A stretch of 64,000 nt of DNA, taken from positions 1,752 to 65,751 of the forward strand of contig CAZYOL010000001.1 in the NCBI GenBank assembly GCA_964649065.1, in the 5' to 3' direction. Source of the stretch: an uncultured Spirochaetales bacterium. Lineage in GTDB: Bacteria; Myxococcota_A; UBA9160; SMWR01. The notes under the pieces were generated by a model. It made no database searches, was not told where the DNA came from, and worked only from the letters and a program-made list of their open reading frames with translations. Positions 16,837-59,977 of this stretch are shown one piece after another; the first letter of the stretch is position 1, and every line of letters begins with the position of its first letter. The position numbers and the translations under genes were made by a program.

Positions 16837-16837
16837 T

Positions 16838-40595: not shown

Positions 40596-41204
40596 TCAGC
40601 CCTCGTCGGGCACGGCGCGGATGGCCGCCGCGATCTCGCGGCTCAGCTGGCCGGCCACCCGGCTCATGGCGCCGACCGAGTCGGCGTAGTCGTCGCCGGC
40701 GCTCGGCTCCACCAGCCTCGTGCGCTGCATCGCCACGCGCTTTCTCGGGTCGTGGCTCCACAGCGTCCAGCGGGCATCCAGGGTCACCGAGCCGTCCTGG
40801 CCGCGCTCGAAGCGCTCGACGTCGATGGTCACCCGCAGGTCGTCCCGGGCCGACTCCTGCCAGGGGAAGGCCCGCACCTGGGCCTCGGGCAGCAGGGCAC
40901 TGAGGTTCTCGGTGATCACCCGCGCCAGGCCCCGATCCAGGTCTTCGCCCCAGCGGTGCTCGTCGGAGACGCTCAGCTCGTGATCGCCCACTCGCGTCAC
41001 CAGGCCGCTGCGGCGCAGGTAACGCGGCAGCTGGATCGGGCCGACGCCGATCGCGAGGCCGGGCTCCTCGGGCGCAGCCCCCTCGGCCCGGCTCACCGGG
41101 CCCAGCACGTACTCGCGCACCTGGATGCCCGGGCTGGCGCAGCCCCCCCACGGAGCCGCGAAGAGCAGGAGGGCCACGGCGCTGGCCATCGATCGAGGTC
41201 TCAC
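40596..41204 (-). CDS. PqiC/DUF330-type ABC-transport auxiliary lipoprotein
   Basis: GTG at 41204 (GTGA overlap) gives MRPRSMASAVALLLFAAPWGGC. VGPIQLPRYLRRSGLVTR, HRWGEDL, and VTIDVERFE...VTLDARWTL are typical of the DUF330 family. Confidence 0.8.
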   Translation of the reverse strand: MRPRSMASAVALLLFAAPWGGCASPGIQVREYVLGPVSRAEGAAPEEPGLAIGVGPIQLPRYLRRSGLVTRVGDHELSVSDEHRWGEDLDRGLARVITENLSALLPEAQVRAFPWQESARDDLRVTIDVERFERGQDGSVTLDARWTLWSHDPRKRVAMQRTRLVEPSAGDDYADSVGAMSRVAGQLSREIAAAIRAVPDEG

Positions 41205-42142
41205 GGGCTCTTCTCCGCTCCGCGGCCGAAGACCACGGAGCTCGGGTTGCGCTCGACGGTGTCGGCCAGCAGCCGGATGGCCCGCGCCGCCTCGGCCAGC
41301 TCTTCGAGGGTCTGGCCGAGCTGGTAGCGCAGCTCCGAGCCGGGCTGGACGGCGCCGTCCAGGCTGACCAGGGTCTCGCGGGCCTGGTCCAGGGCCAGCA
41401 CGGCCGACTCGGCGATCGGCCCGACCTCTGTATCGAGATCCTCGATCAGCGTCCTGGCGGAGCGCGCCGCCTCGCCCGTCTCGTGCACCGCGACGCGCAT
41501 CTCGTCCAGCGTCTCGTCCAGATCGGAGATGACGGCCTTCAGCTGGGGCGAGCCCACCAGGCTGCGGACGTCGGAGATCGCGGCGTCCAGGTTGTCGACG
41601 ATCCTCTCGAGCGGGAGCTCCTGCAGCCGGCTCATCAGGGCGCGCACCGTATTCGAGACCTCCTGGCTCACCGAGGGGATGGTGGGCAGCTCGCGGTAGC
41701 TCTCGTGGAGGCCGAAGTAGTGGATCTCGGTGTCCGGATAGAAGTCGAAGCCCACATAGAGCTGGCCGGTCACCAGGCTCTGGAGCTCCAATCGCGCCCG
41801 CAGGCCCTTCGCCAGCATGAGCTTGAGCCAACGGCCCCGCTCGACGTCGCGCCCCGTCCGCTTGAAGCGATCCGGGTCGACGTCGATTACCACCTCGTTG
41901 ACGATCTCCTTGCTTTCCTGGCTGGCCACGGCGTTCACCTCGACCACGGAGCCGACCTCCACCCCGCGCATCTTCACCGGCGAGGCCACCGTGAGCCCGT
42001 TCACCGAGCCGTCGAAGTAGAGCACGTAGCGCTCCAGCTGGCGCAGCCAGGTGCCGCTGCCCAGGGCGACCACGCCGACCAGCAGCAGGACGACGGCGCC
42101 CACCACGAAGCCCCCGACCAGGCCGGGGTTGGCCTTCTTCAC
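41201..42142 (-). CDS. MlaD/MCE-domain protein with long helical C-terminal extension
   Basis: GTG at 42142 (GTGA overlap). N-terminal TM helix, MCE core YVLYFDGSVNGLTVASPVKMRGVEVGSVVEV...ARLELQSLVTGQLYVGFDF, then about 150 aa of helical region. Confidence 0.88.
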   Translation of the reverse strand: MKKANPGLVGGFVVGAVVLLLVGVVALGSGTWLRQLERYVLYFDGSVNGLTVASPVKMRGVEVGSVVEVNAVASQESKEIVNEVVIDVDPDRFKRTGRDVERGRWLKLMLAKGLRARLELQSLVTGQLYVGFDFYPDTEIHYFGLHESYRELPTIPSVSQEVSNTVRALMSRLQELPLERIVDNLDAAISDVRSLVGSPQLKAVISDLDETLDEMRVAVHETGEAARSARTLIEDLDTEVGPIAESAVLALDQARETLVSLDGAVQPGSELRYQLGQTLEELAEAARAIRLLADTVERNPSSVVFGRGAEKSP

Positions 42143-42909
42143 GTCTCCCCCCGGTTCAGGAAGGTGCGCACCTTCGGGTTGTCGCTGCGATCGCGCAGCT
42201 CCCGCGGGTCGCCGAGAGCGATCTGGGTGCGGGCCTCCGCGCACAGGAAGACCGAGCTGTCGGCGATGGTGAAGATGCTCTGCAGCTCGTGGGTCACCAC
42301 TACGATGGTGATGCCGAGGCTGTCGCGCAGCTCGAGCAGCAGGTCGTCGAGGCGCCGCGAGCTGATCGGGTCGAGACCGGCGGAGGGCTCGTCGAAGAGC
42401 AGCACCTCCGGGTCGAGGGCCATGGCGCGGGCCACTCCGGCCCGCTTCAGCATGCCGCCGCTGACCTCCGAGGGATAGAAGTCCTCGAAGCCCGCCAGCC
42501 CGACGAGGGCCAGCTTGAAGGAGGCCACGTCGCGGATGCGCTCCCTGGAGAGATCCGTGTACTCGGTGAGGGGCAGGGCGATGTTCTCCGCCAGCGTCAT
42601 CGAGCTCCACAGGGCACCGGCCTGGTAGGCGACGCCGAAGCCTCGCTTGAGTCGCTCCCGCTCCTCGTCGCTGGCGGACCAGAAGCTCTCGCCCGAGAAG
42701 AAGACGTCGCCCCGGGCCGGCTGCCGCAGGCCGATCATGTGGCGCAGCAGGGTGCTCTTTCCGCAGCCACTGTCGCCCATGATGACGAAGATCTGGCCGC
42801 GCTGGATCTCGAAGCGCAGGTCGCGCTGCACGACGAAGGAGCCGTAGGCCATGGTCAGGTCGCGCACCTCGATGTGCGGATCCGAGGCCAGCTGCTCGGC
42901 GGCCGACAT
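42139..42909 (-). CDS. MlaF-like ABC transporter ATP-binding protein
   Basis: Walker A GDSGCGKST, signature VSGGMLKRAGVARA, Walker B VLLFDEPSAGLDP. Confidence 0.92.
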   Translation of the reverse strand: MSAAEQLASDPHIEVRDLTMAYGSFVVQRDLRFEIQRGQIFVIMGDSGCGKSTLLRHMIGLRQPARGDVFFSGESFWSASDEERERLKRGFGVAYQAGALWSSMTLAENIALPLTEYTDLSRERIRDVASFKLALVGLAGFEDFYPSEVSGGMLKRAGVARAMALDPEVLLFDEPSAGLDPISSRRLDDLLLELRDSLGITIVVVTHELQSIFTIADSSVFLCAEARTQIALGDPRELRDRSDNPKVRTFLNRGET

Positions 42910-42910
42910 C

Positions 42911-44062
42911 TCAGAGCCCCAGCACGTCGTAGACCACCGTGAGGATGCCGCAGGCCACCACGATGAAGACGATCCCGGTGACCACGGCGGAGGTCGTGGC
43001 CTGGCCCACGGCGGCGGCGCTGCGGCCGCACTGCATGCCGCGCAGGCAGCCCGTCAGCGCCACGATCACGCCGTAGATGGAGGCCTTGAAGAGGCCGCCG
43101 CCGAAGTCGCCGTAGTGGAGGGCTCCCTGCGTCTGGAGCAGATACTGGTCGAAGCCCACGCCGAGGGCCGAGATGCTGACCAGCAGGCCGCCGACGATGC
43201 CCATGACGCTGGCGTAGAGGGCCAGCAGCGGCATCATCAGCATCAGCGCCAGCATGCGCGGCAGCACCAGGTACTCGGTGGGATCGATGCCCAGGGTGCG
43301 CAGGGCATCGATCTCCTCGTTGACCGTCATGGTGCCGAGCTGCGCGGCGAAGGAGGCCCCGGTGCGCCCGGCCATGATGATGGCGGCCATGATCGGGCCC
43401 ATGTCCCGTGCCATGCCGATGCCCACCAGGTCGGCGACGTAGATCTCGGCGCCGAACTGGCGCAGCTGGATCGCCCCCATGAAGGCCAGGATCAGTCCCA
43501 CCAGGGCGCTGATCAGCGACACGATGGGCAGCGCCTCGGCTCCCACCTCCTGCAGGATCGTCCCGAACTCGGTGCGCGGGAAGGTGGCGCGGCCGCGCAG
43601 TAGGCGTCCGAAGGCCAGGGTGGCCTCGCCCAGGAAGACCAGGAAGTCGCGCGCACCCGAGCCGAGCTCTCCGGTGGCCTTGCCGATGCGCACGAGCAGG
43701 GGATCTCGCGCCCCGCCCCGCCCGGTGTCCTTCTTCTCGGGCACGGCCTCGGAGAGGGCGATCAGCCTGCGCACGCCCTCGGGCAGGCCCTCGCGCTCGG
43801 TCTCGACCTGGCGCTCGGCGCAGCCGCGCAGCACCCCCCGCAGCCAGGTGAGCAGACCCGTGTCCCAGGCCGTGACGCCGCTGGTCTCGAAGCGCAGGCT
43901 CGCCGGGCGCCCGGTAGCCACCTCGTCGAGGATCGGCTCCGTCGCAGGCAGCTCGTCGGCGAGGCGCCAGCTCCCCGAGAGCCGCAGGATCAGTACGCCG
44001 GCTTCGGCTCGCTCGATGCTCAGGTCCGTGGCGCTCAGCGGGCCCTCCTCGCTGGGTCCCAT
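42911..44062 (-). CDS. MlaE-family ABC permease with fused N-terminal STAS (MlaB-like) domain
   Basis: ATG at 44062. N-terminal region of about 120 aa VLILRLSGSWRLADELPATEPILDEV...SLRFETSGVTAWDTGLLTWL. MlaE core MARDMGPIMAAIIMAGRTGASFAAQLGTMTVNEEIDALRTLGIDP. Confidence 0.88.
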   Translation of the reverse strand: MGPSEEGPLSATDLSIERAEAGVLILRLSGSWRLADELPATEPILDEVATGRPASLRFETSGVTAWDTGLLTWLRGVLRGCAERQVETEREGLPEGVRRLIALSEAVPEKKDTGRGGARDPLLVRIGKATGELGSGARDFLVFLGEATLAFGRLLRGRATFPRTEFGTILQEVGAEALPIVSLISALVGLILAFMGAIQLRQFGAEIYVADLVGIGMARDMGPIMAAIIMAGRTGASFAAQLGTMTVNEEIDALRTLGIDPTEYLVLPRMLALMLMMPLLALYASVMGIVGGLLVSISALGVGFDQYLLQTQGALHYGDFGGGLFKASIYGVIVALTGCLRGMQCGRSAAAVGQATTSAVVTGIVFIVVACGILTVVYDVLGL

Positions 44063-44158
44063 ACTAGGCGCTTGGGGTCGCGACGGTAAGGCAAAATGGT
44101 CCTGCACCGGCTTGGGCGGCTCCGGAGAGGGCCGGCAGGGGCGCTGGGGCGCGATTCC

Positions 44159-46676: not shown

Positions 46677-47777
46677 CTACAGGGGCTTCCGCGCCAGCCA
46701 GTAGTGCATCGGCGTGAAGATCCCCTGGCGGGCGCCCTCGATCATGCCCTCTCCCAGGGCGCTCATCACGTCATTGTAGGCGCGGGCGGTCCCCGGCGAG
46801 ACCAGCCGCAGCTTCTCCGCCAGGGCCAGCCACCTCTCCCAGGAGAGCAGCGAGAAGGTGGAGTAGAGCACCCTGCGCACGCGGCTGGTCTCCTCGAAGA
46901 AGTAGTACCAGCGCTTGCCGCCAAGCCCGATGCCGAAGTCGTTGTGGTCGCGCTGGGTGACGATCTCGAAGCCCGCCCTCTTCAGGGCCTCGGTGAGATC
47001 CGACATCTTGACCATCCGGCAGACCCCGAGGCCGTACTCGATGAGGTGCCGGACCCGCCGGTGCTCCGGGTTCTCCGGATCGAAGCGCTCGGTCATCTCC
47101 CAGTTGAATCCCGTGAACTTCCCACCGGGCTTGAGCACCCGGAAGACCTCCCGGCAGAGCCTCTCGTAGTCCGGGGAGTGGGCCAGGGACTCGCACATGT
47201 AGACGCCGTCCAGGCTCTCGCTGTCGATCGGGGTCTCGTGGTAGTCGGAGCAGACCAGCTCGATCTGGTGGTCGATCCCGGCCTGCTCGTTCCACTTCTT
47301 CATCTGGGCCAGGTGGCCCTCGTTGATGTTCACCGCCTTGATTCGCGCGCCGGTGAACTGGGCGATGGTTCGCGTGGGTCCGCCCGTGCCGCAGCCGAAG
47401 TCCCCGATCGTCATCGTCTCGTTCGCACCCAGCGAGAGGGCCAGGTAGCACTGGTACATCTGCTGGCAGGCCGCGTAGGACTGCCACTTGCCATCCTCGG
47501 TGGGAAACAGGATTCCGGTGGAGTAGTGCGGACCCCAGACCAGGTGCAAGAGGTCCGTCGTCATGTTGTAGTAGTTCTTGACCAGGTCGAGGTAGCGATC
47601 CCGGCGCAGCTCCTTGAGGTTCCGCTCGTCGGCGTCCAGGTCCGTCGTGTCGTAGAGCTCCAGGTGGCGGTCCAGGTCCTCTTGCTTCACGTCCCGCGGG
47701 AGCCGGCTCTTCAGCCAGAGCCAAAGCCCGATCCCCAGGCCGAAGACTCCGATTGCCACCACGATCGCCACGTTCAT
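46677..47777 (-). CDS. sterol C-24-methyltransferase (ERG6/SMT1 family) homologue with N-terminal TM anchor
   Basis: GDFGCGTGGP (SAM site), VYMCESLAHSP, FRVLKPGGKF, NWEMTERFDPENPEHRRVRHLIEYGLG, ALKRAGFEIV, RWYY, and the C-terminal GIFTPMHYWLARKP. These are colinear with yeast ERG6 blocks. N-terminal TM helix MNVAIVVAIGVFGLGIGLWLWL. Confidence 0.88.
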   Translation of the reverse strand: MNVAIVVAIGVFGLGIGLWLWLKSRLPRDVKQEDLDRHLELYDTTDLDADERNLKELRRDRYLDLVKNYYNMTTDLLHLVWGPHYSTGILFPTEDGKWQSYAACQQMYQCYLALSLGANETMTIGDFGCGTGGPTRTIAQFTGARIKAVNINEGHLAQMKKWNEQAGIDHQIELVCSDYHETPIDSESLDGVYMCESLAHSPDYERLCREVFRVLKPGGKFTGFNWEMTERFDPENPEHRRVRHLIEYGLGVCRMVKMSDLTEALKRAGFEIVTQRDHNDFGIGLGGKRWYYFFEETSRVRRVLYSTFSLLSWERWLALAEKLRLVSPGTARAYNDVMSALGEGMIEGARQGIFTPMHYWLARKPL

Positions 47778-47865
47778 CGCTCCAGTCTCCTCTCCAGAGC
47801 CCGTCGCTGGGCCGCCGGTACTCTAACTGCGCCGCGCCTGCCTCCGCACGCAAAAATCTCTCCCT

Positions 47866-47876
47866 TCCGGAGCCGG
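47866..47876. repeat. 11-bp direct repeat copy B (TCCGGAGCCGG) in the spacer upstream of the SMT gene
   Basis: See 46666..46676. It lies between the palindromic hairpin GGGCCC-gggc-GGGCCC (47884..47899) and the A/T run at 47852..47857. Confidence 0.3.
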
Positions 47877-47903
47877 TCGCCGCGGGCCCGGGCGGGCCCC
47901 GAT

Positions 47904-49004
47904 TCAGGCCGTGGTGCGGGCGAAGCGGTGGAAGCGGGCGCCCAGGAGCAGGCAGCCCGCGCCGTAGATCAGGAGCACGCCCAGGATCGGGGCGATCTCG
48001 ACCAGCGTGCGCTCGCGCAGGATCAGGTCCGTGACGCCCACCATCGCCCAGGCCGTCGGCGTGATCTGGGCGGCCTGCTGCAGCCACAGCGGCTCCTGGA
48101 AGAGGGGCCACCAGCAGCCCCCGACCGAGCAGACCAGCATCACCACAGTGAGTCCCAGTGGGATGATCTGCTCCCGGGAGCCGACGAAGGCCGACACCAG
48201 GAGGCTGAAGCCGGTCATGCAGAAGACGACGGCCACCACCAGCACCCCGAAGGTCGCGATGGAGGGACCCAGGGAGACGCCGAAGACCCAGTGTCCGAAG
48301 GCGAAGAGGACCGCCATCTGGGCGACCCCGATCAGGAAGCGGGCCAGCAGCTTGCCGCCCAGCAGCACCGCCCGCGGCACCGGCGCGATTCGCAGGCGGG
48401 TGAGCGTTCCCGAGTCCTCCTCCTCGCGCAGCCCGAAGGCCACGCCGAAGAGCACGCCCATCAGCACGAACATGACGCTGAAGCCCGGAACGTTCTGGTC
48501 GGCGGGGCGCGCGTTCTTGCGGGTGCCGGTGAGGTTGTCCTCTTCGATGTGCAGCAGCTCCTCGTAGAGCGGGTCCGCCACGGCCGCCGCCTCGCGGTCG
48601 GCCAGCAGCAGCAGGGCGCGTATGGTGTTGAGCTCCGGCCCCTTGGCCGGGTCGGTCAGCAGCGTGAGGGTCGAGGCCCGGTCGGTGAGATAGTTCTTGC
48701 TGGTTCCCTCGGGGATCACCAGGGCTGCCGCCGCCCTGTTCTCCCGGCCCACCCAGCGCTGGGCGGTCTCGAGATCGACCCGCTCGATCACCACGTGCTC
48801 CGCCAGCGTCTGGGCCAGCAGCTCGGGCACCGGGCCCCCGTCGTCGTCGACGAAGGGCAGCAGGATGAAGCCGCCCTCTCGTCCCCCCTGGGTGCCCGCC
48901 ACGATGGCGATCACCACCGCCGGCACCAGCACCGTGAACAGCAGGGCCGCGCGGTCGCGCAGGAAGAGGCGCAGATCCTTGACGGCGACGGTCCAGGCGA
49001 TCAA
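47904..49004 (-). CDS. ABC-2 type transporter permease
   Basis: TTG at 49004 (TTGA overlap). N-terminal TM helix LLFTVLVPAVVIAIVAG, large periplasmic loop, then 5 TM helices (FSVMFVLMGVLFGVAFGL...IAPILGVLLIYGAGCLLLG). Confidence 0.85.
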   Translation of the reverse strand: MIAWTVAVKDLRLFLRDRAALLFTVLVPAVVIAIVAGTQGGREGGFILLPFVDDDGGPVPELLAQTLAEHVVIERVDLETAQRWVGRENRAAAALVIPEGTSKNYLTDRASTLTLLTDPAKGPELNTIRALLLLADREAAAVADPLYEELLHIEEDNLTGTRKNARPADQNVPGFSVMFVLMGVLFGVAFGLREEEDSGTLTRLRIAPVPRAVLLGGKLLARFLIGVAQMAVLFAFGHWVFGVSLGPSIATFGVLVVAVVFCMTGFSLLVSAFVGSREQIIPLGLTVVMLVCSVGGCWWPLFQEPLWLQQAAQITPTAWAMVGVTDLILRERTLVEIAPILGVLLIYGAGCLLLGARFHRFARTTA

Positions 49005-49600
49005 GCCGGGTCCCGCTTCGCGGCCTTCCTGTTGGCGCGGCGCATGCGGTCGAGCAGCTCGGTGAAGGTCTGGGAGCGGAGCAGGCTGTCGAACTGCTCG
49101 CGGTAGTTCGCGACCAGGCTGATGCCCTCGACGACGATGTCGGTGGCGGTCCAGCGCTCTCCCTGGCGGTGCAGGGGGTAGTCCACCGAGTAGGCGTCCT
49201 TGGTGGTGCGGATGCGGGTGGGGACCAGGGCCCGATCGCCCTCCTGCCGCACCTCTCCGAAGCCGAAGACCGGCTTGCGGAAGAGCAGCAGGCGCCGCAG
49301 GTAGGCCCGCACCAGGACCTCGTCGAAGAGCTCCTGGAACTCCTCCTGCTCCGCCGGCTCGAGGCTCTCGAAGCGCTCGCCGAGGGCGCGCCGCCCCATC
49401 AGCTCCGTATCGAGCAGCTCGCGCGCCAGGTCCGAGAGCACCATCAGCTTCTCGTTGCGGCTGCGCTCGCTGGCGACCTCGGCCTGGGCCCGGTCGAGCA
49501 CGTCCTGGACCGAGCCGAGGGGGGTTCCGGCGTCGACCGCGAGGAGAAGGGGAACGAGGCATACAAGGGTCCACACGGCGATGCCGTGACATCGATGCAT
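49001..49600 (-). CDS. MlaC/Ttg2D-family periplasmic lipid-binding protein
   Basis: Signal peptide MHRCHGIAVWTLVCLVPLLLAVDA. LDTELMGRRALGERFESLEPAEQEEFQELFDEVLVRAYL...WTATDIVVEGISLVANYREQFDSLL follows the MlaC pattern. Confidence 0.85.
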   Translation of the reverse strand: MHRCHGIAVWTLVCLVPLLLAVDAGTPLGSVQDVLDRAQAEVASERSRNEKLMVLSDLARELLDTELMGRRALGERFESLEPAEQEEFQELFDEVLVRAYLRRLLLFRKPVFGFGEVRQEGDRALVPTRIRTTKDAYSVDYPLHRQGERWTATDIVVEGISLVANYREQFDSLLRSQTFTELLDRMRRANRKAAKRDPA

Positions 49601-49610
49601 GAGGCTCCTC

Positions 49611-50384
49611 CTAGTCCCGGAGTCCGTGGCCCGTGAGGTGCATGAAGAGGCGCTCGAGCTTGGGCACCACCCGGACGGGCTCCTCGGCGTCGATCAGCTC
49701 CATCAGCTCGGGCAGGGTCCCGGCGGCGATGATCTGCCCGCCGTCCAGGATCGCGATCCGATCGCAGAGCCTCTCGGCCTCCTCCATGTAGTGGGTCGTG
49801 TAGATCACCGTGGTGCCCTGGGCCGCCACGCTGCGCACCGCCTCGAAGAGGTTCTCCCGCGATTGCGGATCGACGCCGGCGGTGGGCTCGTCGAGCAGCA
49901 GCAGGCGCGGCTCGTGCACGAGGCTGCAGGCCAGGTTGAGGCGGCGCTGCATGCCGCCCGAGTAGATGCGCACGCGGTCGTGGCGGCGGTGGCCGAGGCC
50001 GACCATCTCGAGCAGCGCATCGGCCCGCTCCCGCGCCTGGGCCGCCGCCACCCCGTGGAGCCGCGCGAAGAACAGCAGGTTCTCCTCGGCCGTCAGCTCC
50101 GGGTAGAGGCTGATCTGCTGCGGCGCCAGCCCCACCCAGCGCCGCACGCGCTCCACCTCGTGGACCAGGCTGGCGCCGAAGACCTCCGCCTCACCGGAGC
50201 TGGGCGGCAGCAGGGTGGAGAGCATCGACAGGGTGGTCGTCTTGCCGGCGCCGTTCGGGCCCAGCAGCCCGAAGGTCTCACCGGCGGCAATCCGCAGGGA
50301 GATCCCCCGCACCGCCTCGAGATCTCCGAAGCGCCGCGCCAGATCGGTGAGGACGACCTCCTTGTCGCTGCCGGCGGCTCCCAC
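49611..50384 (-). CDS. ABC transporter ATP-binding protein (ABC-2/DrrA-like)
   Basis: Walker [10 protein letters not shown], signature [12 protein letters not shown], Walker [14 protein letters not shown]. Start set at GTG 50384. The ATG at 50441 (AAGGAG 11 nt upstream) would add 19 codons with atypically low third-position GC. Confidence 0.88.
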
Positions 50385-50460
50385 GCGGCGCGCATTATGG
50401 CGAGAAACTGGCTGAGACAGCAAGATAGACTCCGGTCTCATTTTCTGTCATGCTCCTTCC
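50385..50460. promoter_or_regulatory. divergent promoter/operator region (most AT-rich stretch of the window)
   Basis: Lies between the ABC operon (-) and tetR (+). Inverted repeat TGAGAC (50413..50418), 16-nt spacer, GTCTCA (50435..50440). Related half-site CTGTCA at 50445..50450. Confidence 0.35.
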
Positions 50461-51156
50461 ATGGCGAACCCGCCGTCCGTGGGGAATTCAACCCTGCGCG
50501 CGCCGACCGGCTCGGCCCCCGAGGACGAGGACCCGGAGCTGGCGGATCCGCAGCCGGCGCCGCGGACGCTCGTCATCGAGCGCCGGCTGAGCCGCGCCCA
50601 GGCGCGCCGGCGCGACCGGGTTCGGGCCTCGGCCCGGGCGTTGGCCGAAGCAGGGGGCTACGGGGCGGTCACCATGGACGCGGTCGCCTCCCGCTCCGAG
50701 GTCGCCCGCGCCACCATCTATCGCTACTTCAGCTCGAAGGACCACCTGCTCTCCGAGGTCGCCGTGGAGTGGGGCGAGACCCTGGCCGAGGCCCTGCGCA
50801 GCGAGGGCCCGCGCGGCGACGGCCCGGCGGCCCGCGTTGCCTCGGCCTTCCGCCGCGTGCTCGAGGCCGCCCTCGACTCGCCGCGCCTCACCGAGGCGGT
50901 CGGGCGCGCGGCGATCTCCTCGGATCCCGAGGCGCTGCGCTCCCAGGAGCAGTTCCTCTCGGTGCTCTCCGGTCTGGTCGGGGCCGCCCTGGGTGACGCC
51001 CCCATCCGCCGTCGCGCCGATCGGGAGAAGGTTCTGGGCAACGTCCTGTTCTCGGCCCTGGTCAACATCACCACGGGCCGTTTCGACGAGCGCCAGGCCG
51101 TGGAAATTCTCGAGACCGCTGCGGACCTGCTCTTCGCCGAGGAGGGAGCCGATTGA
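50461..51156 (+). CDS. TetR/AcrR family transcriptional regulator
   Basis: HTH block GYGAVTMDAVASRSEVARATIYRYFSSKDHLLSEV, followed by a helical ligand-binding domain. Confidence 0.9.
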   Translation: MANPPSVGNSTLRAPTGSAPEDEDPELADPQPAPRTLVIERRLSRAQARRRDRVRASARALAEAGGYGAVTMDAVASRSEVARATIYRYFSSKDHLLSEVAVEWGETLAEALRSEGPRGDGPAARVASAFRRVLEAALDSPRLTEAVGRAAISSDPEALRSQEQFLSVLSGLVGAALGDAPIRRRADREKVLGNVLFSALVNITTGRFDERQAVEILETAADLLFAEEGAD

Positions 51157-52259
51157 AGTTCGCGATGTTCTACGAGATTCCGGTGGCGAGGCCCTGGCAC
51201 GATCGCAGCGAGCAGCAGGCCTATCGCGAGGTGCTCGAGCAGGTCGTCTTCGGGGAGCAGATGGGCTTCGAATCGGTGTGGACCGTCGAGCACCACTTCC
51301 TCGAGGAGTACTCCCACTGCTCGAATCCGGAGGTCCTCTACGGTGCGATCGCCGCGTGCACCGAACGTATCCGCATCGGCTACGGCGTGCGCCTGGCTCC
51401 CAAGCCCTACAACCATCCGGTTCGCTCGGCCGAGTCGGCCGCCGTCCTCGACCTGCTCTCCGACGGGCGCGTCGAGTTCGGCACCGGTCGCTCCAGTACC
51501 CGCCTGGAGCTCGAGGGCTTCGGGGTACACCCCGACGAGACGCGCGAGATGTGGCTCGAGGCCGTCGGGCACATCGTGCACTGCTGGACCGAGGAGTACA
51601 ACCAGTTCCAGGGCCGGCACTGGCAGCTGCCGCGTCGCCGGGTCCAGCCCAAGCCCATCCAGCGCCCCCACCCTCCGATCTGGGGGGCGACGGGCAGCCC
51701 CGAAGGGCACCGCATGATGGGCGAGCTGGGCCTGGGCCTGCTCTCCTTCAGCGTGGGCACCTCTCCCGACCAGCTGACGGAGCGCCTCGAGCTCTACCGT
51801 GCCGGCCTGGCGCGCTGCCGGCAGCCTCTCGGGGCCGAGATCAACGATCGCGCCGCCTGCTTCACGATGGTGAACTGCGCGCCGACCCGAGAGGAGAGCT
51901 ACGAGGTCTCGCGCCGCTCCTTCGAGTGGTATCTGCGCCACTCGGCCGAGATGGTGGCCTCGGTGCCCGCCTGGCTCGACGAGATGAAGCAGGCCGAGCA
52001 CGGCAGCTACGCCTATCTCGACGAGGCCGCGCAGATGGTGGGCCAGAAGCTCCACGAGCTGGCCACGCTCGAGGCCCTGCTCGAGATGAACGCCTGCATC
52101 GCGGGCGACCCGGAGGAGGTGATCGAGCGCTGCCGGGCCTACCGGGCCACCGGCGCGGATCTCCTGCTCTGCCTCTTCAACCCCTACGACGTTCCGCACG
52201 AAAAGGTCATGCAGACCCTCGAGCTGTTCGGGAAGCACGTCATCCCCGCCTTCGACTAG
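51153..52259 (+). CDS. LLM-class (luciferase-like) flavin-dependent oxidoreductase
   Basis: TTG at 51153 (TTGA overlap, GGAGGGAG RBS). MKFAMFYE..., GFESVWTVEHHF, DLLSDGRVEFGTGRS, PHPPIWGA. Confidence 0.9.
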   Translation: MKFAMFYEIPVARPWHDRSEQQAYREVLEQVVFGEQMGFESVWTVEHHFLEEYSHCSNPEVLYGAIAACTERIRIGYGVRLAPKPYNHPVRSAESAAVLDLLSDGRVEFGTGRSSTRLELEGFGVHPDETREMWLEAVGHIVHCWTEEYNQFQGRHWQLPRRRVQPKPIQRPHPPIWGATGSPEGHRMMGELGLGLLSFSVGTSPDQLTERLELYRAGLARCRQPLGAEINDRAACFTMVNCAPTREESYEVSRRSFEWYLRHSAEMVASVPAWLDEMKQAEHGSYAYLDEAAQMVGQKLHELATLEALLEMNACIAGDPEEVIERCRAYRATGADLLLCLFNPYDVPHEKVMQTLELFGKHVIPAFD

Positions 52260-52268
52260 GAGAGAGCC

Positions 52269-53510
52269 ATGGCAGCACCGGTCCAGAGCTTCGACCGCAA
52301 CATCGTCCACCCCGACGTCTACGCCGACCACGGCTATCCCCACGACATCTGGACCTGGCTGCGCCAGAACGACCCGCTGCACCGCTGGGAGAGGACGGCG
52401 GGCCTGCCCTTCTGGGCGGTGACCAAGCGCGCCGACATCGTCGAGATCTCCACCCAGCCCGAGATCTTCCTGAACGGCCCCCGGCTGGTGATCTCCCACG
52501 AGCCCGAGGTCCGCAACGAGGAGTTTCCGCCGACGCTGATCCAGATGGACAACCCGCGGCACAGCGCCTACCGGAAGCTGGTGAGCCACCGCTTCAAGCC
52601 CGCTGGCCTGCGCCGCATCCACCACGACATCGAGCGGATCGGCAAGGAGATCGTCGACGCTCTGATCGAGAAGGAGGAGTGGAGCTGCGACTTCGTGAAG
52701 GAGGTCAGCGCTCCGCTGCCGATCGCCGTGATCGCCTGGCTGCTCGGCGTGCCCCGGGCCGACTGGGATCAGCTCTTCGACTGGACCAACCGGACCATCG
52801 GCTCGGCCGATCCCGAGTACCAGCGGGAGGGGCAGGACCAGCAGGCCACGGGCCGCGCCGCCATGATCGAGCTCTTCACCTACTTCAGCCAGCTGGTGGA
52901 GGAGAAGAAGAAGAATCCCTCGGACGACCTGATCTCGCTCTTCGCCACCGCGGAGATCGACGGCGAGAAGCTCGAGCCGATGGACGTGCTCGCCTGGTGC
53001 CTGATCATCGTCGTGGCGGGGAACGAGACCACCCGCAACGGGACCACCGGCGGAATGCTGGCCTTCATCGAGCACCAGGACCAGCTGCGCAAGCTCCAGG
53101 CCCAGCCGGAGCTGCTGCCCCTGGCCGTCGAGGAGGTCGTGCGCTGGACCAGCCCGATCATCCACTTCGCCCGCACCGCCACGCGCGACTACGAGCTGCG
53201 CGGCAAGACCATCCGCGAGGGCGATGCGCTGGCGCTCTTCTACCCCTCGGCCAACCGCGACGAGGAGGTCTTCGAGGAGCCGAATCGCTTCCGGATCGAC
53301 CGCAATCCGAATCGCCACGTCGGCTTCGGGGTGGGCGAGCACTTCTGTCTCGGCGTGCATCTGGCCCGGCTCGAGCTGGAGGTCGCCTACAAGCACCTGC
53401 TCCCGCGGATCGAGGAGATCGAGCTGGCCGGGCCCGTCGAGCGGCTGCGCTCGAGCCTGGTCGGGGGCGTGAAGCACCTGCCGATCCGCTACAGGCTGCG
53501 GCCCACCTAG
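52269..53510 (+). CDS. cytochrome P450 (class I bacterial, AGNETT I-helix)
   Basis: GGAGAG RBS. I-helix IIVVAGNETTRNGT, ExxR in EEVVRW, heme loop FGVGEHFCLGVHLARLE. Confidence 0.93.
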   Translation: MAAPVQSFDRNIVHPDVYADHGYPHDIWTWLRQNDPLHRWERTAGLPFWAVTKRADIVEISTQPEIFLNGPRLVISHEPEVRNEEFPPTLIQMDNPRHSAYRKLVSHRFKPAGLRRIHHDIERIGKEIVDALIEKEEWSCDFVKEVSAPLPIAVIAWLLGVPRADWDQLFDWTNRTIGSADPEYQREGQDQQATGRAAMIELFTYFSQLVEEKKKNPSDDLISLFATAEIDGEKLEPMDVLAWCLIIVVAGNETTRNGTTGGMLAFIEHQDQLRKLQAQPELLPLAVEEVVRWTSPIIHFARTATRDYELRGKTIREGDALALFYPSANRDEEVFEEPNRFRIDRNPNRHVGFGVGEHFCLGVHLARLELEVAYKHLLPRIEEIELAGPVERLRSSLVGGVKHLPIRYRLRPT

Positions 53511-53551
53511 ACCCTCCGCGAAGGAGACGCTCCCGGCTACTCTGCGCGCCG

Positions 53552-54574
53552 ATGGGGCTGGGCGCAGCGCGGCGGGTCGGACTCGTCGTGGCGGCCAACC
53601 TCGCCGGGGCCGCGCTCCTGCTGGCGCTCCTCGAGGGCATCGCGCGGGGGCTGGCCCCGGCGGAGCCGCCGGCCCTCTTCGACCTGCCCGAGCTGCACCG
53701 GCGCGGCCGGCCCTTCGTGGTCGCGCACCCGCAGCGCGGCTTCGCGCTGCGCCCCGGATTCGCCAGCGAGGAGATCCGCGTCGGTGCGTGGGGCCTGCGG
53801 GGCCCGGAGCGCAGCCCGCCCTTCGCGGGCCCGCTGCTGCTCGCGGTGGGCGACTCGACGGTCTTCGGCTGGGGCGTTCGGGACGACGAGGCCTGGCCCG
53901 CGGTCCTGGAGCGACGCCTTCCGGGCGTCACCGTGCTGAACGCCGGCGTGCCCTCCTACACCTCGCCCCAGGCGCGCGCCTACCTGGACGAGCTGCTGCC
54001 GCGCTTCTCGCCGGACATCGTGCTGATCGGCGTGCTCTGGAACGACATCTGGTTCTCCTCCCTGGATCCCTGGTACCCCGAGGCGCTCGTGCTGCGCCGG
54101 CCCCGCGCCTGGCGGCGCTGGCTCTTCGAGCACTCCGCCCTCTTCCGGGCCCTGGCGCTGCGGGGACGGCCGCGCGCGGCGCGCCAGGACGTCTTCAACA
54201 CCCGAGCCCTGGACCACTACGCGAGCCAGCTCGATGCGATGGCACGCGCCTGTGCCCGGGCCGGGGCCCGGCTCGTCTTTCTGGCCCCGCCCTTCGACGA
54301 GTCGCACCTGCGCGAGGACGGCGGCACGCCCCTGGGCCAGCTTCACTTCAGTCGCCCCTTCGTGGGCGAGCTCGCCCGGCGCTACACCGCAGCGCTCGCG
54401 GAGGTGGCCTCCCGCCACGGCGTGGCGGCGCTGGATCACCGCATCTCCCTCAGCACGCCGCGGCAGCCGCGCCTCTTCCTGGATGCCATCCACGCCACCG
54501 CCGAGGGCCACCGCCTGCTCGCCGGGGACGTGGCTCGCTTCCTGCGTCAGCAGGGCTGGCTGGAGTCGCCCTAG
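53552..54574 (+). CDS. membrane-anchored SGNH/GDSL family hydrolase
   Basis: ATG at 53552, in frame in shadow ORF 50837..54574. N-terminal TM helix. Block I LLLAVGDSTVFGWG, block III VLIGVLWNDI, block V LDAIHATAEGH. Confidence 0.8.
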   Translation: MGLGAARRVGLVVAANLAGAALLLALLEGIARGLAPAEPPALFDLPELHRRGRPFVVAHPQRGFALRPGFASEEIRVGAWGLRGPERSPPFAGPLLLAVGDSTVFGWGVRDDEAWPAVLERRLPGVTVLNAGVPSYTSPQARAYLDELLPRFSPDIVLIGVLWNDIWFSSLDPWYPEALVLRRPRAWRRWLFEHSALFRALALRGRPRAARQDVFNTRALDHYASQLDAMARACARAGARLVFLAPPFDESHLREDGGTPLGQLHFSRPFVGELARRYTAALAEVASRHGVAALDHRISLSTPRQPRLFLDAIHATAEGHRLLAGDVARFLRQQGWLESP

Positions 54575-54575: not shown

Positions 54576-55490
54576 CTAGGAGCCCGGAGCGGAGTCGTCG
54601 GCGGCCGCCCGTCGCTCGGCGCGCTCCGCGAGGGTCTGGTCGAGGTAGGCGAGATAGGCCGAGATCAGCCGGAAGGACTCGAGGTACTCACCGATCTGGC
54701 TGTCGGCCAGCACGATCAGCATGGTGGGGATGTCGAAGTTGCTCGGCACCACGGGCACCTGCACCGTCTTGGCGACGCTGAAGCGTGGATCCAGCGCGAA
54801 GCCGGCCTGCCGGAGCTCGGTGGTGGTGAACTCGACCCGCCGCATGGGCACCTCGAGGGAGCGGCTCACCGAGCGCAGGTCCAGCTGCAGCTCGGGGTCG
54901 GCCTGGCGGAGCATCCGCAGCTGCCTCAGACCGCGGCTGCGCAGGTCGACCAGCGCAGTGACGGGCTCGCGCGCCTCGTCGCCCAAGGCCTTCAGGGCCA
55001 ACCGCGTCGCCGCCGGGCTGGCGCTGTCGCGGCTCTCGTGCCCGAAGGCCAGGAACAGATACGTGTGTCGGCGCGGCTCGGCCGCCAGCGCTCGGTAGAG
55101 GTTCGGGAGCATCGCGGCCGCAGGCCAGCCGTCGGCATCCGCGGAGCGCGGAGCGTCGTAGCTGGTGCTGACCAGGATCGTGGTCGGGCTGAGGCCCGGC
55201 AGGGCACAGAGCAGCAGCGGGCGCTGCGAGCTCTTCAGCTCGCGCAGCTCGACCTCGCCGCAGCCGGCCTCCTCGAAGAGCGCTCGTAGCCGTTCGTAGC
55301 GCGGCAGGCTCGGATCCGGGATGGGCAGGGCGCTGTCCATCAGCGCGTGCGGATCCTGGGCGATGCGTACCGTGCGATCGCCGGGGACCGACATCACCGA
55401 ATGGCCCGAGCAGGCGAGCGCCGACACCAGAGTCGAGAGAGCCACGGCGCGTCGCAGGGAGACCCGCCGTCTGAGCCGTCCAAGAACCAC
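54576..55490 (-). CDS. hypothetical lipoprotein (possibly degenerate M28-like fold)
   Basis: GTG at 55490. Lipobox LVSALAC. ILVSTSYDAP...ADGWPAAAMLPNLYRAL...YLFLAFGHE faintly recalls the M28 peptidase layout with substituted ligands. This is a low-confidence family call. Confidence 0.55.
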   Translation of the reverse strand: MVLGRLRRRVSLRRAVALSTLVSALACSGHSVMSVPGDRTVRIAQDPHALMDSALPIPDPSLPRYERLRALFEEAGCGEVELRELKSSQRPLLLCALPGLSPTTILVSTSYDAPRSADADGWPAAAMLPNLYRALAAEPRRHTYLFLAFGHESRDSASPAATRLALKALGDEAREPVTALVDLRSRGLRQLRMLRQADPELQLDLRSVSRSLEVPMRRVEFTTTELRQAGFALDPRFSVAKTVQVPVVPSNFDIPTMLIVLADSQIGEYLESFRLISAYLAYLDQTLAERAERRAAADDSAPGS

Positions 55491-57264: not shown

Positions 57265-58374
57265 TCAGGCCAGCCCGCTCACCTCGCTGCGCTTCAGCAC
57301 GCGACAGCGCGGCTCCGGGTGAGAGTCGGCGCGCACCCAGCGCACGCACATGGTCCCGTGGTGGTGCCCGGAGGTGTCCATCCAGTTGGGTACGCCCGGA
57401 TCCTCGTGGGCGACGGCGATGCGCACGCTGCCGTCTTCGCGGCGCTGGGCCTGGCCGCTGTTCACGTGCACCCTGCGGAAACGGTAGTCGAGGGACTCGG
57501 CCCAGATGTTGCCGAGCTGGAAGTTCCAGTAGTGGCAGGCCGGGGGGACCAGGTCGACGACCAGGACCTCCTCGGGCGCCAGCTCCCAGCGCCCCAGCCA
57601 GATGCGGATGTTCGGATCGCCTCCCACCAGGCGGTGGTTCTCCGGGTCCGGCAGGTGGAACCGGTTGGGCGGGGCCTGGTCGAGGAAGGAGACCACCCAG
57701 TCGGCGAACCACTGGGCGCAGCCGATGGCGTAGAGGGCGGAGCCCATCAGCTGCCCCGGGACGCGCTCCGGATCCAGCGGCGCCGGAGCGCCCTCGGCCT
57801 CCAGGCACTCGATCGCAAGCTCCACCGGCTGCTCGCGCTCCCGGTGCAGGAAGGTCTGGCGGACCAGGATCTGGGCCGTGTCCGGGCTCATGCGCAGCCA
57901 GTTGCCCGGCTGCGGCTGCTGGCTGGCGAGGATCTCGAAGCTGCCGTCCGGGGCCAGCTCCAGCTCGCTGTCGTTCAGGTGGCCGGCGCCTCCGGTCAGC
58001 CGCTCGCGCGCCGCGAAGTTCTGGTTCTGGGCGGCGAAGCTCAGGTAGTGGATGGAGCCCCGCCGGCCGCGGATGCGGTAGCTCAGGTTCCCCTTCACCG
58101 AGGCGCTGACGTAGTAGTTGTCCGGATTGTCGAGGCCCATCTTGACGCCCTCCGGCATGGCCCGGAAGACGGGGTGCTCGGGGCCGCTGGACTCGGCGAA
58201 GGAGACGAGGCCCGCTCTCAGCAGGCGGCTCAGGTAGCGGAGGCCCTCGGCCCGGTCGAAGGGGCTGGTGCCCAGATCTTCCCGCTGCAGCACCTCGCCG
58301 GCCTTCTTCAGCAGCTCGCAGAACTCGGACCAGGCCTCGCCGCTCTGCACCTTCTCGATCGGGCTCTCGCTCAT
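57265..58374 (-). CDS. DUF1214-like protein, unknown function
   Basis: ATG at 58374 after GGAGAGG. Soluble 369-aa protein with EGLRYLSRLLRAGL, LDNPDNYYVSASV and YWNFQLGNIWAESLDY, as I recall for DUF1214 proteins. Confidence 0.65.
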   Translation of the reverse strand: MSESPIEKVQSGEAWSEFCELLKKAGEVLQREDLGTSPFDRAEGLRYLSRLLRAGLVSFAESSGPEHPVFRAMPEGVKMGLDNPDNYYVSASVKGNLSYRIRGRRGSIHYLSFAAQNQNFAARERLTGGAGHLNDSELELAPDGSFEILASQQPQPGNWLRMSPDTAQILVRQTFLHREREQPVELAIECLEAEGAPAPLDPERVPGQLMGSALYAIGCAQWFADWVVSFLDQAPPNRFHLPDPENHRLVGGDPNIRIWLGRWELAPEEVLVVDLVPPACHYWNFQLGNIWAESLDYRFRRVHVNSGQAQRREDGSVRIAVAHEDPGVPNWMDTSGHHHGTMCVRWVRADSHPEPRCRVLKRSEVSGLA

Positions 58375-58459
58375 CCGCCTCTCCGTCGGCTCCGCACTCC
58401 GATCGATCCTACCGCTCCCGGATGGGATACGCTCTCGCGCCCGTAGGGAGCGCTCCTCC

Positions 58460-59977
58460 ATGTCGCTGCGCATCGCGATCATCGGCTCCGGCTTCTCCGG
58501 CCTGTGCCTCGGCATAGAGCTCAAGAAGGCGGGCTTCGCCGACTTCACCGTCTACGAGAAGGCCGAGGGCCTGGGCGGGACCTGGCGCGAGAACACCTAT
58601 CCCGGGGCGGCCTGCGACTCGCCCTCTTTCGCCTACTGCTTCTCCTTCGCCCAGAAGACCGACTGGTCGCGCAAGTGGGCTCCCCAGCCCGAGATCCTCG
58701 GCTACCTGGAGCAGTGCGCGGACGACTTCGGCCTGCGCCCCCATCTCCGCTTCGGGACCGAGATCGCGAGCGCGCGCTTCGATCCACTGGCCGGCCTCTG
58801 GGAGCTCAGGACGAGCGAGGGCGAGACGATCGAGGCGGAGGTGCTGATCAGCTCGGTGGGCCAGCTGAACCGGCCCTTCGTCCCGCAGCTCCCGGGCCTC
58901 TCGGACTTCCGGGGGCCCTGCTTCCACTCGGCGGGCTGGGACGACCGGGTGCCCCTGGAGGGGCGCCCGGTGGCGGTGATCGGCAACGCCGCCAGCGCCA
59001 TCCAGCTGGTTCCGCGCGTCGCGGAGCGGGCCTCGCGACTCAGCATCTTCCAGCGCAGCGCCAACTGGATGATGCCGAAGGGCGACCGCGAGTACAGCGA
59101 GGCCGAGAGGCGGCGCTTCGCGCGTTCCCCCTGGCTGGCCCGCCTGTACCGCTGGTGGATCTGGCTCTCCTTCGAGCTGCGCTGGCCGCTCTTCCGCGGC
59201 AACCGCTGGATGCGGCGCAACGCCGAGCGGCTCTCCCTGCGGCACATGCACGCCGCGGTCGCCGACCCCGAGCTGCGGGAGGCGCTGACGCCGGACTACC
59301 CGATCGGCGGCAAGCGCATCCGCATCTCCGACGACTACTACTCGACACTGGTGCGCGACGACGTCGAGCTGGTCACCAGCGGAATCGAGCGCATCGTGGA
59401 GGACGGGGTGGTCGACCGGGAGGGGCGTCACCACCCCGCCGAGGTGCTGGTGCTGGCGACCGGCTTCGAGTCCACCTCCTTCCTCGTCCCCATGCGCATC
59501 GAGGGCCTCGGCGGCCGCCTCCTGCAGGACGAGTGGGGTGACGGCGCCCACGCCTACCTGGGAATCAGCGTCGCGGGCTTCCCGAACTTCTTCATGACCT
59601 ACGGGCCCAACACGAATCTCGGTCACAACAGCATCATCTTCATGATCGAGTGCCAGAGCCGCTACATCCTGGGCTGCCTCGAGGCGATGCGCGCCCGGGA
59701 GCTGGCCTGGATCGACCTGCGCCCGGAGGTGCAGGAGGACTTCAACCTGCAGCTCCAGGAGGAGCTGGCCTCGACGGTCTGGTCGCAGACGGGCAAGAGC
59801 TGGTACAAGACCGATTCGGGACGCATCACCAACAACTGGTCCGGGACGACGCTGCGCTACTGGTGGCGCACCCGCCGTCCCGCGCTGCGCTGCTACCGCC
59901 AGGTCGCGCGCAGCGCGTCTCGGCCCGCCGGCTCCAGGGCGGTCGCTCCCGACTCGGTCGCTGCGGCCGGGAGCTGA
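58460..59977 (+). CDS. flavin-containing / Baeyer-Villiger-type monooxygenase
   Basis: FAD site IAIIGSGFSGLCLG, GGTWRENTYPGAACD, BVMO fingerprint FRGPCFHSAGWD (FxGxxxHxxxWD), NADP site VAVIGNAASAIQ, ATGF. Confidence 0.9.
   Translation: MSLRIAIIGSGFSGLCLGIELKKAGFADFTVYEKAEGLGGTWRENTYPGAACDSPSFAYCFSFAQKTDWSRKWAPQPEILGYLEQCADDFGLRPHLRFGTEIASARFDPLAGLWELRTSEGETIEAEVLISSVGQLNRPFVPQLPGLSDFRGPCFHSAGWDDRVPLEGRPVAVIGNAASAIQLVPRVAERASRLSIFQRSANWMMPKGDREYSEAERRRFARSPWLARLYRWWIWLSFELRWPLFRGNRWMRRNAERLSLRHMHAAVADPELREALTPDYPIGGKRIRISDDYYSTLVRDDVELVTSGIERIVEDGVVDREGRHHPAEVLVLATGFESTSFLVPMRIEGLGGRLLQDEWGDGAHAYLGISVAGFPNFFMTYGPNTNLGHNSIIFMIECQSRYILGCLEAMRARELAWIDLRPEVQEDFNLQLQEELASTVWSQTGKSWYKTDSGRITNNWSGTTLRYWWRTRRPALRCYRQVARSASRPAGSRAVAPDSVAAAGS

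Follow-up and report, generated by a model that had tools for sequence, protein, structure and literature searches.

In the KstR/CYP125 regulon of Actinobacteria, a KstR-type TetR repressor stands by a cytochrome P450 of the CYP125 clan, with ATP-binding cassette (ABC)-type lipid transport (Mce4) nearby and an operator in a divergent promoter. The Mla pathway (MlaFEDB-MlaC-MlaA) pairs an ABC transporter with an MlaC-fold carrier, and in LolCDE-LolA and LptB2FG-LptCA an ABC transporter lifts hydrophobic cargo from the inner membrane and delivers it to a soluble periplasmic carrier. The BstABC system of Methylococcus capsulatus moves a bacterial sterol to the outer membrane by means of an RND pump (BstA), a periplasmic-binding-protein (PBP)-type binder (BstB) and a third protein, BstC (PMC10942540), and bacterial sterol methyltransferases (SMTs) are described from sterol gene clusters (PMC10070321; bioRxiv 10.64898/2025.12.19.695621). 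Among bacteria, the Myxococcota have the most eukaryote-like sterol chemistry, though their oxysterol enzymes and envelope sterol transport have not been identified (PMC10202945, PMC10152446, PMC10942540); they make cholesterol, 25-hydroxycholesterol and nannosterols with oxidized side chains, by enzymes that are not known (PMC10202945, PMC10152446). Here, we describe a locus in a stretch of 64,000 nucleotides of contig CAZYOL010000001.1 (referred to below as the window, meaning the full 64 kb) which forms a new variant of these lipid-trafficking and KstR/CYP125 themes. We propose, tentatively and as a possibility that falls somewhat short of an even chance, that the locus is a composite, in which a KstR-like TetR, its operator and a CYP125-clan P450 form a core beside an ABC-2/MlaC envelope lipid transporter, and in which the side chain of a sterol-like lipid is hydroxylated.

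The likeness to each of the described systems is partial. The window shares with the actinobacterial regulon the placing of regulator, P450, transporter and operator, but its regulator reaches 94 bits against a cut-off of 280 bits for KstR, its candidate operator reads GAGAC-N16-GTCTC, it has no catabolic genes, its transporter combines ABC-2 and MlaC components instead of MCE components, and its host is Gram-negative and probably a member of the Myxococcota. As in the Mla pathway, an MlaC-fold carrier is encoded inside an ABC transporter operon, and a sister clade of the transporter has an MlaA gene attached; unlike in that pathway, the permease is a DrrAB/NodIJ-like ABC-2 protein with a periplasmic loop, and neither MlaE nor an MlaD ring is encoded in the operon. 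The likeness to BstABC is one of idea only, an inner-membrane transporter with a periplasmic carrier and a putative sterol cargo, whereas the protein families (here an ABC-2 pump and MlaC) are entirely different. The analogy to LolCDE-LolA and LptB2FG-LptCA is likewise drawn from gene content, with no sequence relationship. The SMT-like protein encoded at one end of the locus has the full-length architecture of bacterial SMTs, with Region II, E195 and Region IV, in a high-GC, Myxococcota-like genome, but it is at most 37% identical to them, its Region I reads VWGPHYST, its gene does not cluster with oxidosqualene cyclase (OSC), SdmAB or erg genes, and its clade includes intron-containing eukaryotic genes.

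The genes and elements of the locus, from left to right, are:

46677-47777, minus strand: S-adenosylmethionine (SAM) methyltransferase, SMT-like, with an N-terminal membrane anchor (Methyltransf_11 and Sterol_MT_C)
47904-49004, minus strand: ABC-2 permease (ABC2_membrane_3, 117 bits)
49001-49600, minus strand: MlaC-fold periplasmic lipid carrier with a signal peptide (Pfam MlaC, 119.5 bits)
49611-50382, minus strand (alternative starts TTG 50423 and ATG 50441): DrrA-type ABC ATPase (ABC_tran, 115 bits; drrA subfamily, 286 bits)
50383-50460: divergent intergenic region, AT-rich, containing a promoter-like site that faces the leftward operon
50414-50440: candidate TetR operator GAGACAGCAAGATAGACTCCGGTCTCA (GAGAC-N16-GTCTC), a palindrome conserved in the related locus L147
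50461-51156, plus strand: TetR-family repressor with a KstR-type C-terminal domain (TetR_N and TetR_C_20)
51153-52259, plus strand: flavin mononucleotide (FMN)/F420-type luciferase-like monooxygenase (LLM; Bac_luciferase, 197 bits)
52269-53510, plus strand: CYP125/124-clan cytochrome P450 (CYP125MRCA, 393 bits)
53552-54574, plus strand: membrane-anchored SGNH/GDSL hydrolase (Lipase_GDSL_2, 66.7 bits)

Genes were called from a listing of open reading frames (ORFs), codon-position GC analysis and Pfam/NCBIfam scans, and the eight that the initial annotation had named are all present, in the families it gave them (Pfam/NCBIfam) and with coordinates exact or within a few codons. The ATG of the SGNH gene is corrected to 53552, and the ATPase probably starts at 50382. 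In the rightward direction tetR and the LLM gene overlap by 4 bp, with gaps of 9 bp between the LLM and P450 genes and of 41 bp between the P450 and SGNH genes; in the leftward direction the ATPase and MlaC genes lie 10 bp apart, the MlaC and permease genes overlap by 4 bp, and 126 bp separate the permease and SMT-like genes. Both the LLM and the permease start with TTG, overlapping the stop codons of tetR and the MlaC gene, respectively, the permease start being taken from the gene call on an identical contig (L089; Logan, run SRR6462996). ATPase orthologues align from about residue 23-24 of the window protein, and the codons 5' of 50382 are AT-rich and overlap the candidate operator. We favor GTG 50382 as the start because the orthologues begin at about residue 23, and 50383-50460 (78 bp) would therefore be the true divergent intergenic region.

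By the nomenclature rule for P450s, a protein more than 40% identical to a member belongs to the same family. The window P450 exceeds 40% with its best solved relative, the reconstructed ancestor CYP125MRCA (393 bits, 47.6% identity), whereas among extant enzymes CYP125A1, at 277 bits, does not surpass P450terp (283 bits), with CYP124 at 265 bits. Since the three extant enzymes score about equally, the substrate could be any methyl-branched lipid. CYP125MRCA oxidizes cholesterol, phytosterols and vitamin D3 in vitro (PMC12100521). The P450 motifs are intact, namely FGVGEHFCLG in the Cys ligand loop, EVVR for EXXR, and AGNET for the I-helix AGxET, and the family is very conserved, with more than 120 clusters at 70-79% identity, several of them named as metagenome-assembled genomes (MAGs) of Myxococcota, and with many orthologues carrying the JGI name cholest-4-en-3-one 26-monooxygenase. 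The window protein is thus named here as a probable omega-hydroxylase for the terminal methyl group of a sterol or a methyl-branched lipid.

The regulator encoded upstream of it scores 53 bits to TetR_N and 42.5 bits to TetR_C_20 in Pfam. Its closest NCBIfam family is KstR, at 93.8 bits over the full model, with the next family at 35 bits, and this score lies below the KstR equivalog cut-off of 280 bits. In a window of 72% G+C, the only AT-rich stretch of the locus is 50383-50460. It holds a sigma-70-like site, ATGACA-18-TATCTT (minus strand, 50451-50422), that faces the transporter and is the sole such site in 8.4 kb, where 0.2 would be expected. The palindrome TGAGAC-N16-GTCTCA at 50413-50440 occurs once in the window, and the 27-bp element GAGACAGCAAGATAGACTCCGGTCTCA has this single occurrence even at 3 mismatches (0 expected); as a candidate operator it covers the -10 element and the spacer of the leftward promoter-like site. 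In L147, where tetR lies directly 5' of the P450 gene and the two products are 58% and 80% identical to those of the window, the spacer that precedes tetR is diverged outside GAGACGACAGGATAGACTCAAGTCTCA, a near base-for-base match to the window element. Taken together, the sequences provide good evidence that the 27-bp element, which lies across the -10 of the leftward promoter, serves as an operator for TetR, and the divergent promoter under TetR control that had been claimed for the locus is likely. The KstR operator motif, which we take to be TnnAACnnGTTnnA, is absent from 50383-50460, as is that of KstR2; TnnAACnnGTTnnA matches the window once, at 51597, inside the LLM coding sequence. A 21-codon ORF, MTENETGVYLAVSASFSP (50449-50391, minus strand), following GGAAGGAG, also overlaps the operator inside the intergenic region and is probably non-coding, because its Shine-Dalgarno spacing is too short.

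Leftward of this region, the ATPase scores 286 bits to the drrA subfamily, just under the NCBIfam cut-off of 312 bits, and is encoded together with an ABC2_membrane permease, the combination that defines ABC-2 systems of the DrrAB/NodIJ type; the predicted permease topology comprises a first transmembrane (TM) helix, an extracytoplasmic loop of about 135 aa and five further TM helices. The carrier between them has HpnM as its best NCBIfam match (59 bits, below cut-off). Its AlphaFold2 (AF2) model (pLDDT 86.6) confirmed the MlaC fold, with Foldseek TM-scores of 0.72-0.85 to phospholipid-bound MlaC/Ttg2D structures at 17-22% identity. A metagenome scan with an alignment of this MlaC-like subfamily returned 56 loci (L091-L146), all of 63-73% G+C, and wherever flanks were available the MlaC gene was bordered by the gene for a DrrA-like ATPase on one side (58-80% identity) and by that for an ABC-2 permease on the other (38-64%). 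The triad is therefore a conserved module; besides these loci, it was also seen in L090 and L148. A rough neighbor-joining tree of the permeases gave four groups. In the first, the triad is followed by genes for an FA_hydroxylase, a START-like protein and a GT1 glycosyltransferase, the hydroxylases having the ornithine-lipid hydroxylase OlsE as their best NCBIfam match, below cut-off. In the second, an MlaA lipoprotein gene lies directly upstream (L129, L130, L132 and L137), which connects the triad with lipid traffic between the membranes; the third includes a pair of permease genes encoded on the opposite strand, and the fourth, a mixed group, contains the window triad together with the other P450-adjacent triads. 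Within the window, tblastn over the 64 kb found no MlaA, and the ABC-2 operon contains neither an MlaE permease nor MlaD (MCE), the MlaE/F/D genes being in a separate operon at 41201-44107. A full-text literature search combining MlaC and ABC-2 brought up one unrelated paper and none that describes such a system, and the triad would seem to be a form of inter-membrane lipid transport not described before. ABC-2 systems of the DrrAB/NodIJ type are typically exporters. From this character, and from the analogy with LolCDE-LolA, we infer that transport is directed outward.

The P450 and the triad meet more than once. P450 orthologues were recovered in six distinct genomic contexts:

Window: TetR-LLM-P450-SGNH, divergent from the triad
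L147: TetR-P450 only, without triad, LLM, SGNH or SMT
L122: permease and P450 genes convergent and touching
L148 (L149 is the same organism): HAE3/HpnN-like RND transporter, DUF456 protein, P450 and an uncharacterised gene, convergent on the triad
L150 (Myxococcota MAG, GCA_022447545.1): P450 with SDR, MBOAT and LLM genes, and with neither TetR nor triad
L151/L152: neither TetR nor triad

P450 orthologues of 75-80% identity adjoin triads in three genomes, divergently in the window, convergently and touching in L122, and convergently with one gene between in L148, and the DNA identity among these genomes is only 68-81%. An adjacency that is kept in three genomes, each time in another orientation, is difficult to account for unless the two parts are functionally coupled, and this distribution argues for a coupling of lipid oxidation with lipid trafficking. 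The eight-gene arrangement as a whole, in contrast, was found only in this window; what recurs are sub-modules, namely the triad itself, the pairing of TetR and operator with the P450 (L147) and that of the P450 with the triad (three genomes), but not the links to the LLM, the SGNH hydrolase or the SMT-like protein. No orthologue of the LLM or of the SGNH hydrolase was found in any fetched locus, LLMs near related loci being only 26-30% identical to that of the window. The window LLM falls in no specific NCBIfam subfamily at cut-off and its PDB matches are generic; judged by its distribution, its gene was inserted between tetR and the P450 gene in this lineage only. The SGNH hydrolase, product of the last gene of the rightward operon, has an N-terminal TM anchor and complete GDS, G, GxND and DxxH blocks, and by the same measure is lineage-specific. 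An SMT homologue was found in 0 of the ~56 triad loci, and the triad in none of the bacterial SMT-clade loci. The LLM, SGNH and SMT-like genes are thus described here as additions specific to this genome, with a putative part in the pathway.

L147 also offers a glimpse of what surrounded the TetR gene in a relative. The gene divergent from tetR there is an orthologue (54% identity) of window 35408-37660 (minus strand), whose product of 750 aa has no Pfam match and whose gene may ancestrally have been under the same operator. In the window, a block of ~13 kb that holds genes for a DUF7453 protein and myo-inositol oxygenase (MIOX), the Mla operon, a Na+/H+ exchanger, the SMT-like gene and the triad lies between tetR and this former partner. 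Synteny with TetR-P450 is kept on the other side, where a lipoprotein-like protein without a Pfam or NCBIfam match (54576-55490, minus strand, convergent on the rightward operon) has an orthologue (42% identity) near the P450 in L147; its N-terminus reads ...LVSALAC, and its single-sequence AF2 model was unusable (pLDDT 40). The ~13 kb of unrelated genes on this side of tetR, the SMT-triad adjacency unique to the window, the cross-domain transfer in the SMT-like clade and the lack of a triad in half of the P450 contexts would all fit a chance juxtaposition, in which rearrangement joined three things without a common pathway: a lipid transporter with a housekeeping role, a TetR-P450 pair for detoxification and a methyltransferase acquired horizontally. 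We consider this very unlikely, as P450-triad adjacency in three genomes and three orientations is not what would be expected of two single-copy modules in genomes of ~10 Mb, and as the conserved operator lies directly over the triad-facing promoter in the window.

The composite reading would instead work as follows. With no ligand, TetR would sit on GAGAC-N16-GTCTC over the leftward -10, keeping the transporter operon off and probably its own tetR-LLM-P450-SGNH operon as well, until a lipid ligand or an oxidized product frees it. The P450 would then hydroxylate the terminal methyl group of the lipid side chain, possibly together with the LLM and with the SGNH protein as an extracytoplasmic esterase, and the ABC-2 pump, driven by ATP, would draw the lipid out of the inner membrane and pass it on to the periplasmic MlaC for passage toward the outer membrane. 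The gene families, the close packing of the operons, the conservation of the operator and the recurrence of the triad and of its adjacency to the P450 are observed; ligand, transport direction and sterol identity are the parts of this scheme that we infer. A sterol-like substrate is the leading candidate because of the regulator and P450 families, the steroid-type enzymes near P450 orthologues and the unexplained oxysterols of Myxococcota, and on these comparisons a sterol is plausible.

The steroid-type enzymes are found in two of the related loci. In L148 the triad is followed by genes for an SDR and a ketosteroid-isomerase-related protein. In L150 a homologue of 3-ketosteroid-delta4(5alpha)-dehydrogenase (Kst4D; 17625-19073, 346 bits to 4at0) is encoded 6.4 kb from the P450 orthologue, and a Rieske/Ring_hydroxyl_A gene lies at 20679-21257, both within 10 kb of it; the pair hints at steroid ring metabolism in Myxococcota. 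L148 also encodes, after a TP_0789-like protein and two genes 5' of the P450 orthologue with DUF456 between, an HAE3/HpnN-like RND transporter (5765-9341) with precomputed Pfam matches to a Sterol-sensing domain and, faintly, to Patched, and with a C-terminal cNMP-binding domain.

These genes also bear on whether the locus serves the scavenging and catabolism of sterols, with a predatory myxobacterium importing prey or eukaryotic sterols through the MlaC/ABC and MCE systems and beginning side-chain degradation by oxidizing them at C26 with a CYP125-type enzyme under a KstR-like sensor, as in the actinobacterial Mce4/KstR/CYP125 system. KstR is the closest curated family of the regulator, CYP125, CYP142 and CYP124 are the closest characterized P450s, and the JGI label on many P450 orthologues names a cholest-4-en-3-one 26-monooxygenase; an MlaE/F/D and lipoprotein MCE system lies 5 kb off, and the Kst4D and Rieske ring-hydroxylase-family genes of L150 would fit as well. 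The P450 does not, however, belong to a cholesterol catabolic cluster, as the window contains neither side-chain beta-oxidation genes of the FadD19/ChsE/Ltp2 type nor ring-degradation genes of the KstD/KshA/Hsa type. A Baeyer-Villiger monooxygenase encoded 4 kb off has steroid monooxygenase as its top PDB match, but at 251 bits this stands barely above phenylacetone monooxygenase (241 bits) and does not discriminate, and we rejected the enzyme as steroid-specific; a GMC oxidoreductase (28605-30119) was likewise rejected as a cholesterol oxidase, being like glucose/fructose dehydrogenases. A methyltransferase would have no catabolic role, and ABC-2 systems are exporters as a rule. On balance, we regard catabolism as unlikely.

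The Sterol_MT_C match (PF08498) of the SMT-like protein reaches 40.2 bits against a cut-off of 21.7, its GIFTPM..ARKP tail aligns with canonical SMTs, to which the protein is 30-37% identical, and a TM helix is predicted at residues 3-21. Region II (DxGxGxxGP) is kept as DFGCGTGGP, as are the Region III Glu E195 (YMCESLAHSP) and the Region IV Gly G217 (KPGG). In Region I, GWGxxFHF, the residues G84, W85, H90 and F91 are kept by every SMT tested, functional or not (bioRxiv 10.64898/2025.12.19.695621), but the window protein reads VWGPHYST and its clade [VI]WGPHYS[TM], with G84, F89, H90 and F91 all replaced. The assignment as an SMT homologue is thus borne out by Methyltransf_11/Sterol_MT_C and Regions II-IV but not by the sterol-binding Region I, and membership among functional sterol C-24 methyltransferases is not established by these comparisons. 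OSC, SdmAB and erg homologues were not found near the gene, either in the 64-kb window or in the bacterial SMT-clade locus L081. Close relatives are rare, with ~9 at no less than 52% identity, several of them fragments, among 1.84 billion cluster representatives; a search with an alignment of the clade, for which generic SAM-methyltransferase motifs were chosen, returned only unrelated methyltransferases of at most 37% identity. Eukaryotic-like relatives of 54-62% identity are found on low-GC contigs (0.46-0.51), at L085:10031-11095, L086:1025-2209 and L087:8250-9463, split by introns in L085 and L087 and accompanied by genes for annexin, SET, coatomer and adaptin (L085), dynamin, cyclophilin and MTHFR (L087) and serine carboxypeptidase (L086). 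Intron-split genes in such company mean that the clade spans eukaryotes and high-GC bacteria, and the window gene has long been resident in its genome, as its third-codon-position G+C (GC3) of 0.93 shows. The 126-bp spacer between it and the permease gene shows no significant RNA structure (z = 0.59), and co-transcription is accordingly neither supported nor excluded; of the eight genes, it is the one least firmly tied to the unit.

In L081 an SMT orthologue 72% identical to that of the window lies beside FA_hydroxylase, TetR and P450 genes. We rejected this as a recurrence of the arrangement, the P450, though also CYP125/CYP142-like, being only 36% identical and the TetR alike only in its helix-turn-helix. 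L081 also contains a match to GAGAC-N16-GTCTC, which we did not accept as an operator, for its interior is unrelated and it sits between convergent 3' ends; 5' of the non-orthologous tetR beside the SMT-clade gene there is a perfect palindrome, TTGGAGT-CT-ACTCCAA (L081:2339-2354), which is likely to be an operator of different specificity.

The altered Region I, with the loss of G84, F89, H90 and F91, would fit an explanation without sterols, in which the P450 would omega-hydroxylate iso-branched chains or an isoprenoid of the hopanoid, carotenoid or squalene type, the SMT-like protein would methylate an olefinic non-sterol isoprenoid, and the triad would export the product to the outer membrane as an envelope lipid. 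CYP124, an omega-hydroxylase of methyl-branched lipids, and P450terp score like extant CYP125, the best NCBIfam match of the carrier is the hopanoid-associated HpnM, solved MlaC proteins bind phospholipids, the first triad clade stands beside OlsE-like hydroxylases, START-like proteins and GT1 glycosyltransferases, and the window is free of sterol biosynthesis genes. Such a lipid would, however, leave unaccounted for the specific likeness of the regulator to KstR (94 bits, with other families at 35 or below), the 47.6% identity of the P450 to a sterol-oxidizing CYP125 ancestor, the genes for steroid-type enzymes close to the P450 orthologues of L148 and L150, and the presence of a CYP125/CYP142-like P450 and a TetR in L081, a second SMT-clade locus. 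We find a non-sterol cargo doubtful, though it is the alternative that we take most seriously.

Several of these observations weigh against the composite, sterol-leaning reading that we prefer. (i) CYP125A1 scores no better than P450terp or CYP124 (277 against 283 and 265 bits), and no redox partner gene for the P450 lies nearby. (ii) The candidate operator differs from the KstR motif, and the divergent partner of tetR in L147 matches a window gene ~13 kb from the window TetR. (iii) All solved relatives of the carrier bind phospholipids, and in a sister clade the triad has genes for OlsE-like enzymes, START-like proteins and GT1 glycosyltransferases as neighbors. (iv) The full arrangement occurs only here, with TetR-P450 lacking the triad in L147 and the P450 lacking both TetR and triad in L150 and L151. 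(v) The 64 kb contain no genes for OSC, squalene epoxidase, CYP51, SdmAB, side-chain beta-oxidation or ring cleavage, and the earlier statement that core cyclase genes are absent from the window holds. Considered as a whole, the interpretation of the locus as a sterol tailoring-and-trafficking unit is partly supported: the P450 and the regulator have a sterol flavor at the family level, but Region I and the lack of a conserved eight-gene unit speak against it.

A bolder version of the composite reading would make the triad a widespread Lol-like variant of Mla that in the window's clade carries side-chain-oxidized sterols to the outer membrane of Myxococcota under a KstR-like sensor, with the P450 producing 25/26-hydroxysterols and the SMT-like protein adding a further side-chain modification. 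We think this decidedly improbable. If sterol trafficking were nonetheless true, an outcome on which we would place equally little weight, the CYP125-like P450 would be the missing oxysterol enzyme of myxobacteria, and interest would be high. Short of that, the locus and its relatives supply candidates that can be cloned, in a very conserved P450 of CYP125 type that comes with a sensor and an operator of its own, and in an ABC-2/MlaC transporter. Even with a non-sterol cargo, a partnership of MlaC with an ABC-2 pump in place of MlaFEDB would add a further architecture to those known for outer-membrane lipid transport, and the SMT-like clade, shared with eukaryotes and devoid of the canonical sterol-binding motif, bears on the use of methylated steranes as eukaryotic biomarkers.

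The wider neighborhood cited in the initial annotation is real, and comprises MlaE/MlaF/MlaD/ABC_trans_aux genes (40596-44107), a DUF1214 protein gene with that of the Baeyer-Villiger monooxygenase (57265-59977) and a DUF1295 gene (12671-13540). The Mla operon, on the minus strand, is without an MlaC gene of its own, the sole MlaC gene of the window being that in the ABC-2 operon. Between it and the SMT-like gene lie genes for the Na+/H+ exchanger and a 7-TM protein without a known family, with no sterol-related genes, and the genes elsewhere in the window are housekeeping or miscellaneous ones. MIOX (39195-40115, minus strand, 304 bits) is a mostly eukaryotic enzyme. The window further encodes a membrane protein of the haemolysin-III family (33744-34487, minus strand), which presumably corresponds to the PAQR receptors, and a sulfatase (9829-11283, plus strand) and an alkyl-sulfatase (MBL and Alkyl_sulf_dimr/C; 14267-16837, minus strand), which lie less than 6 kb apart and flank the DUF1295 gene.

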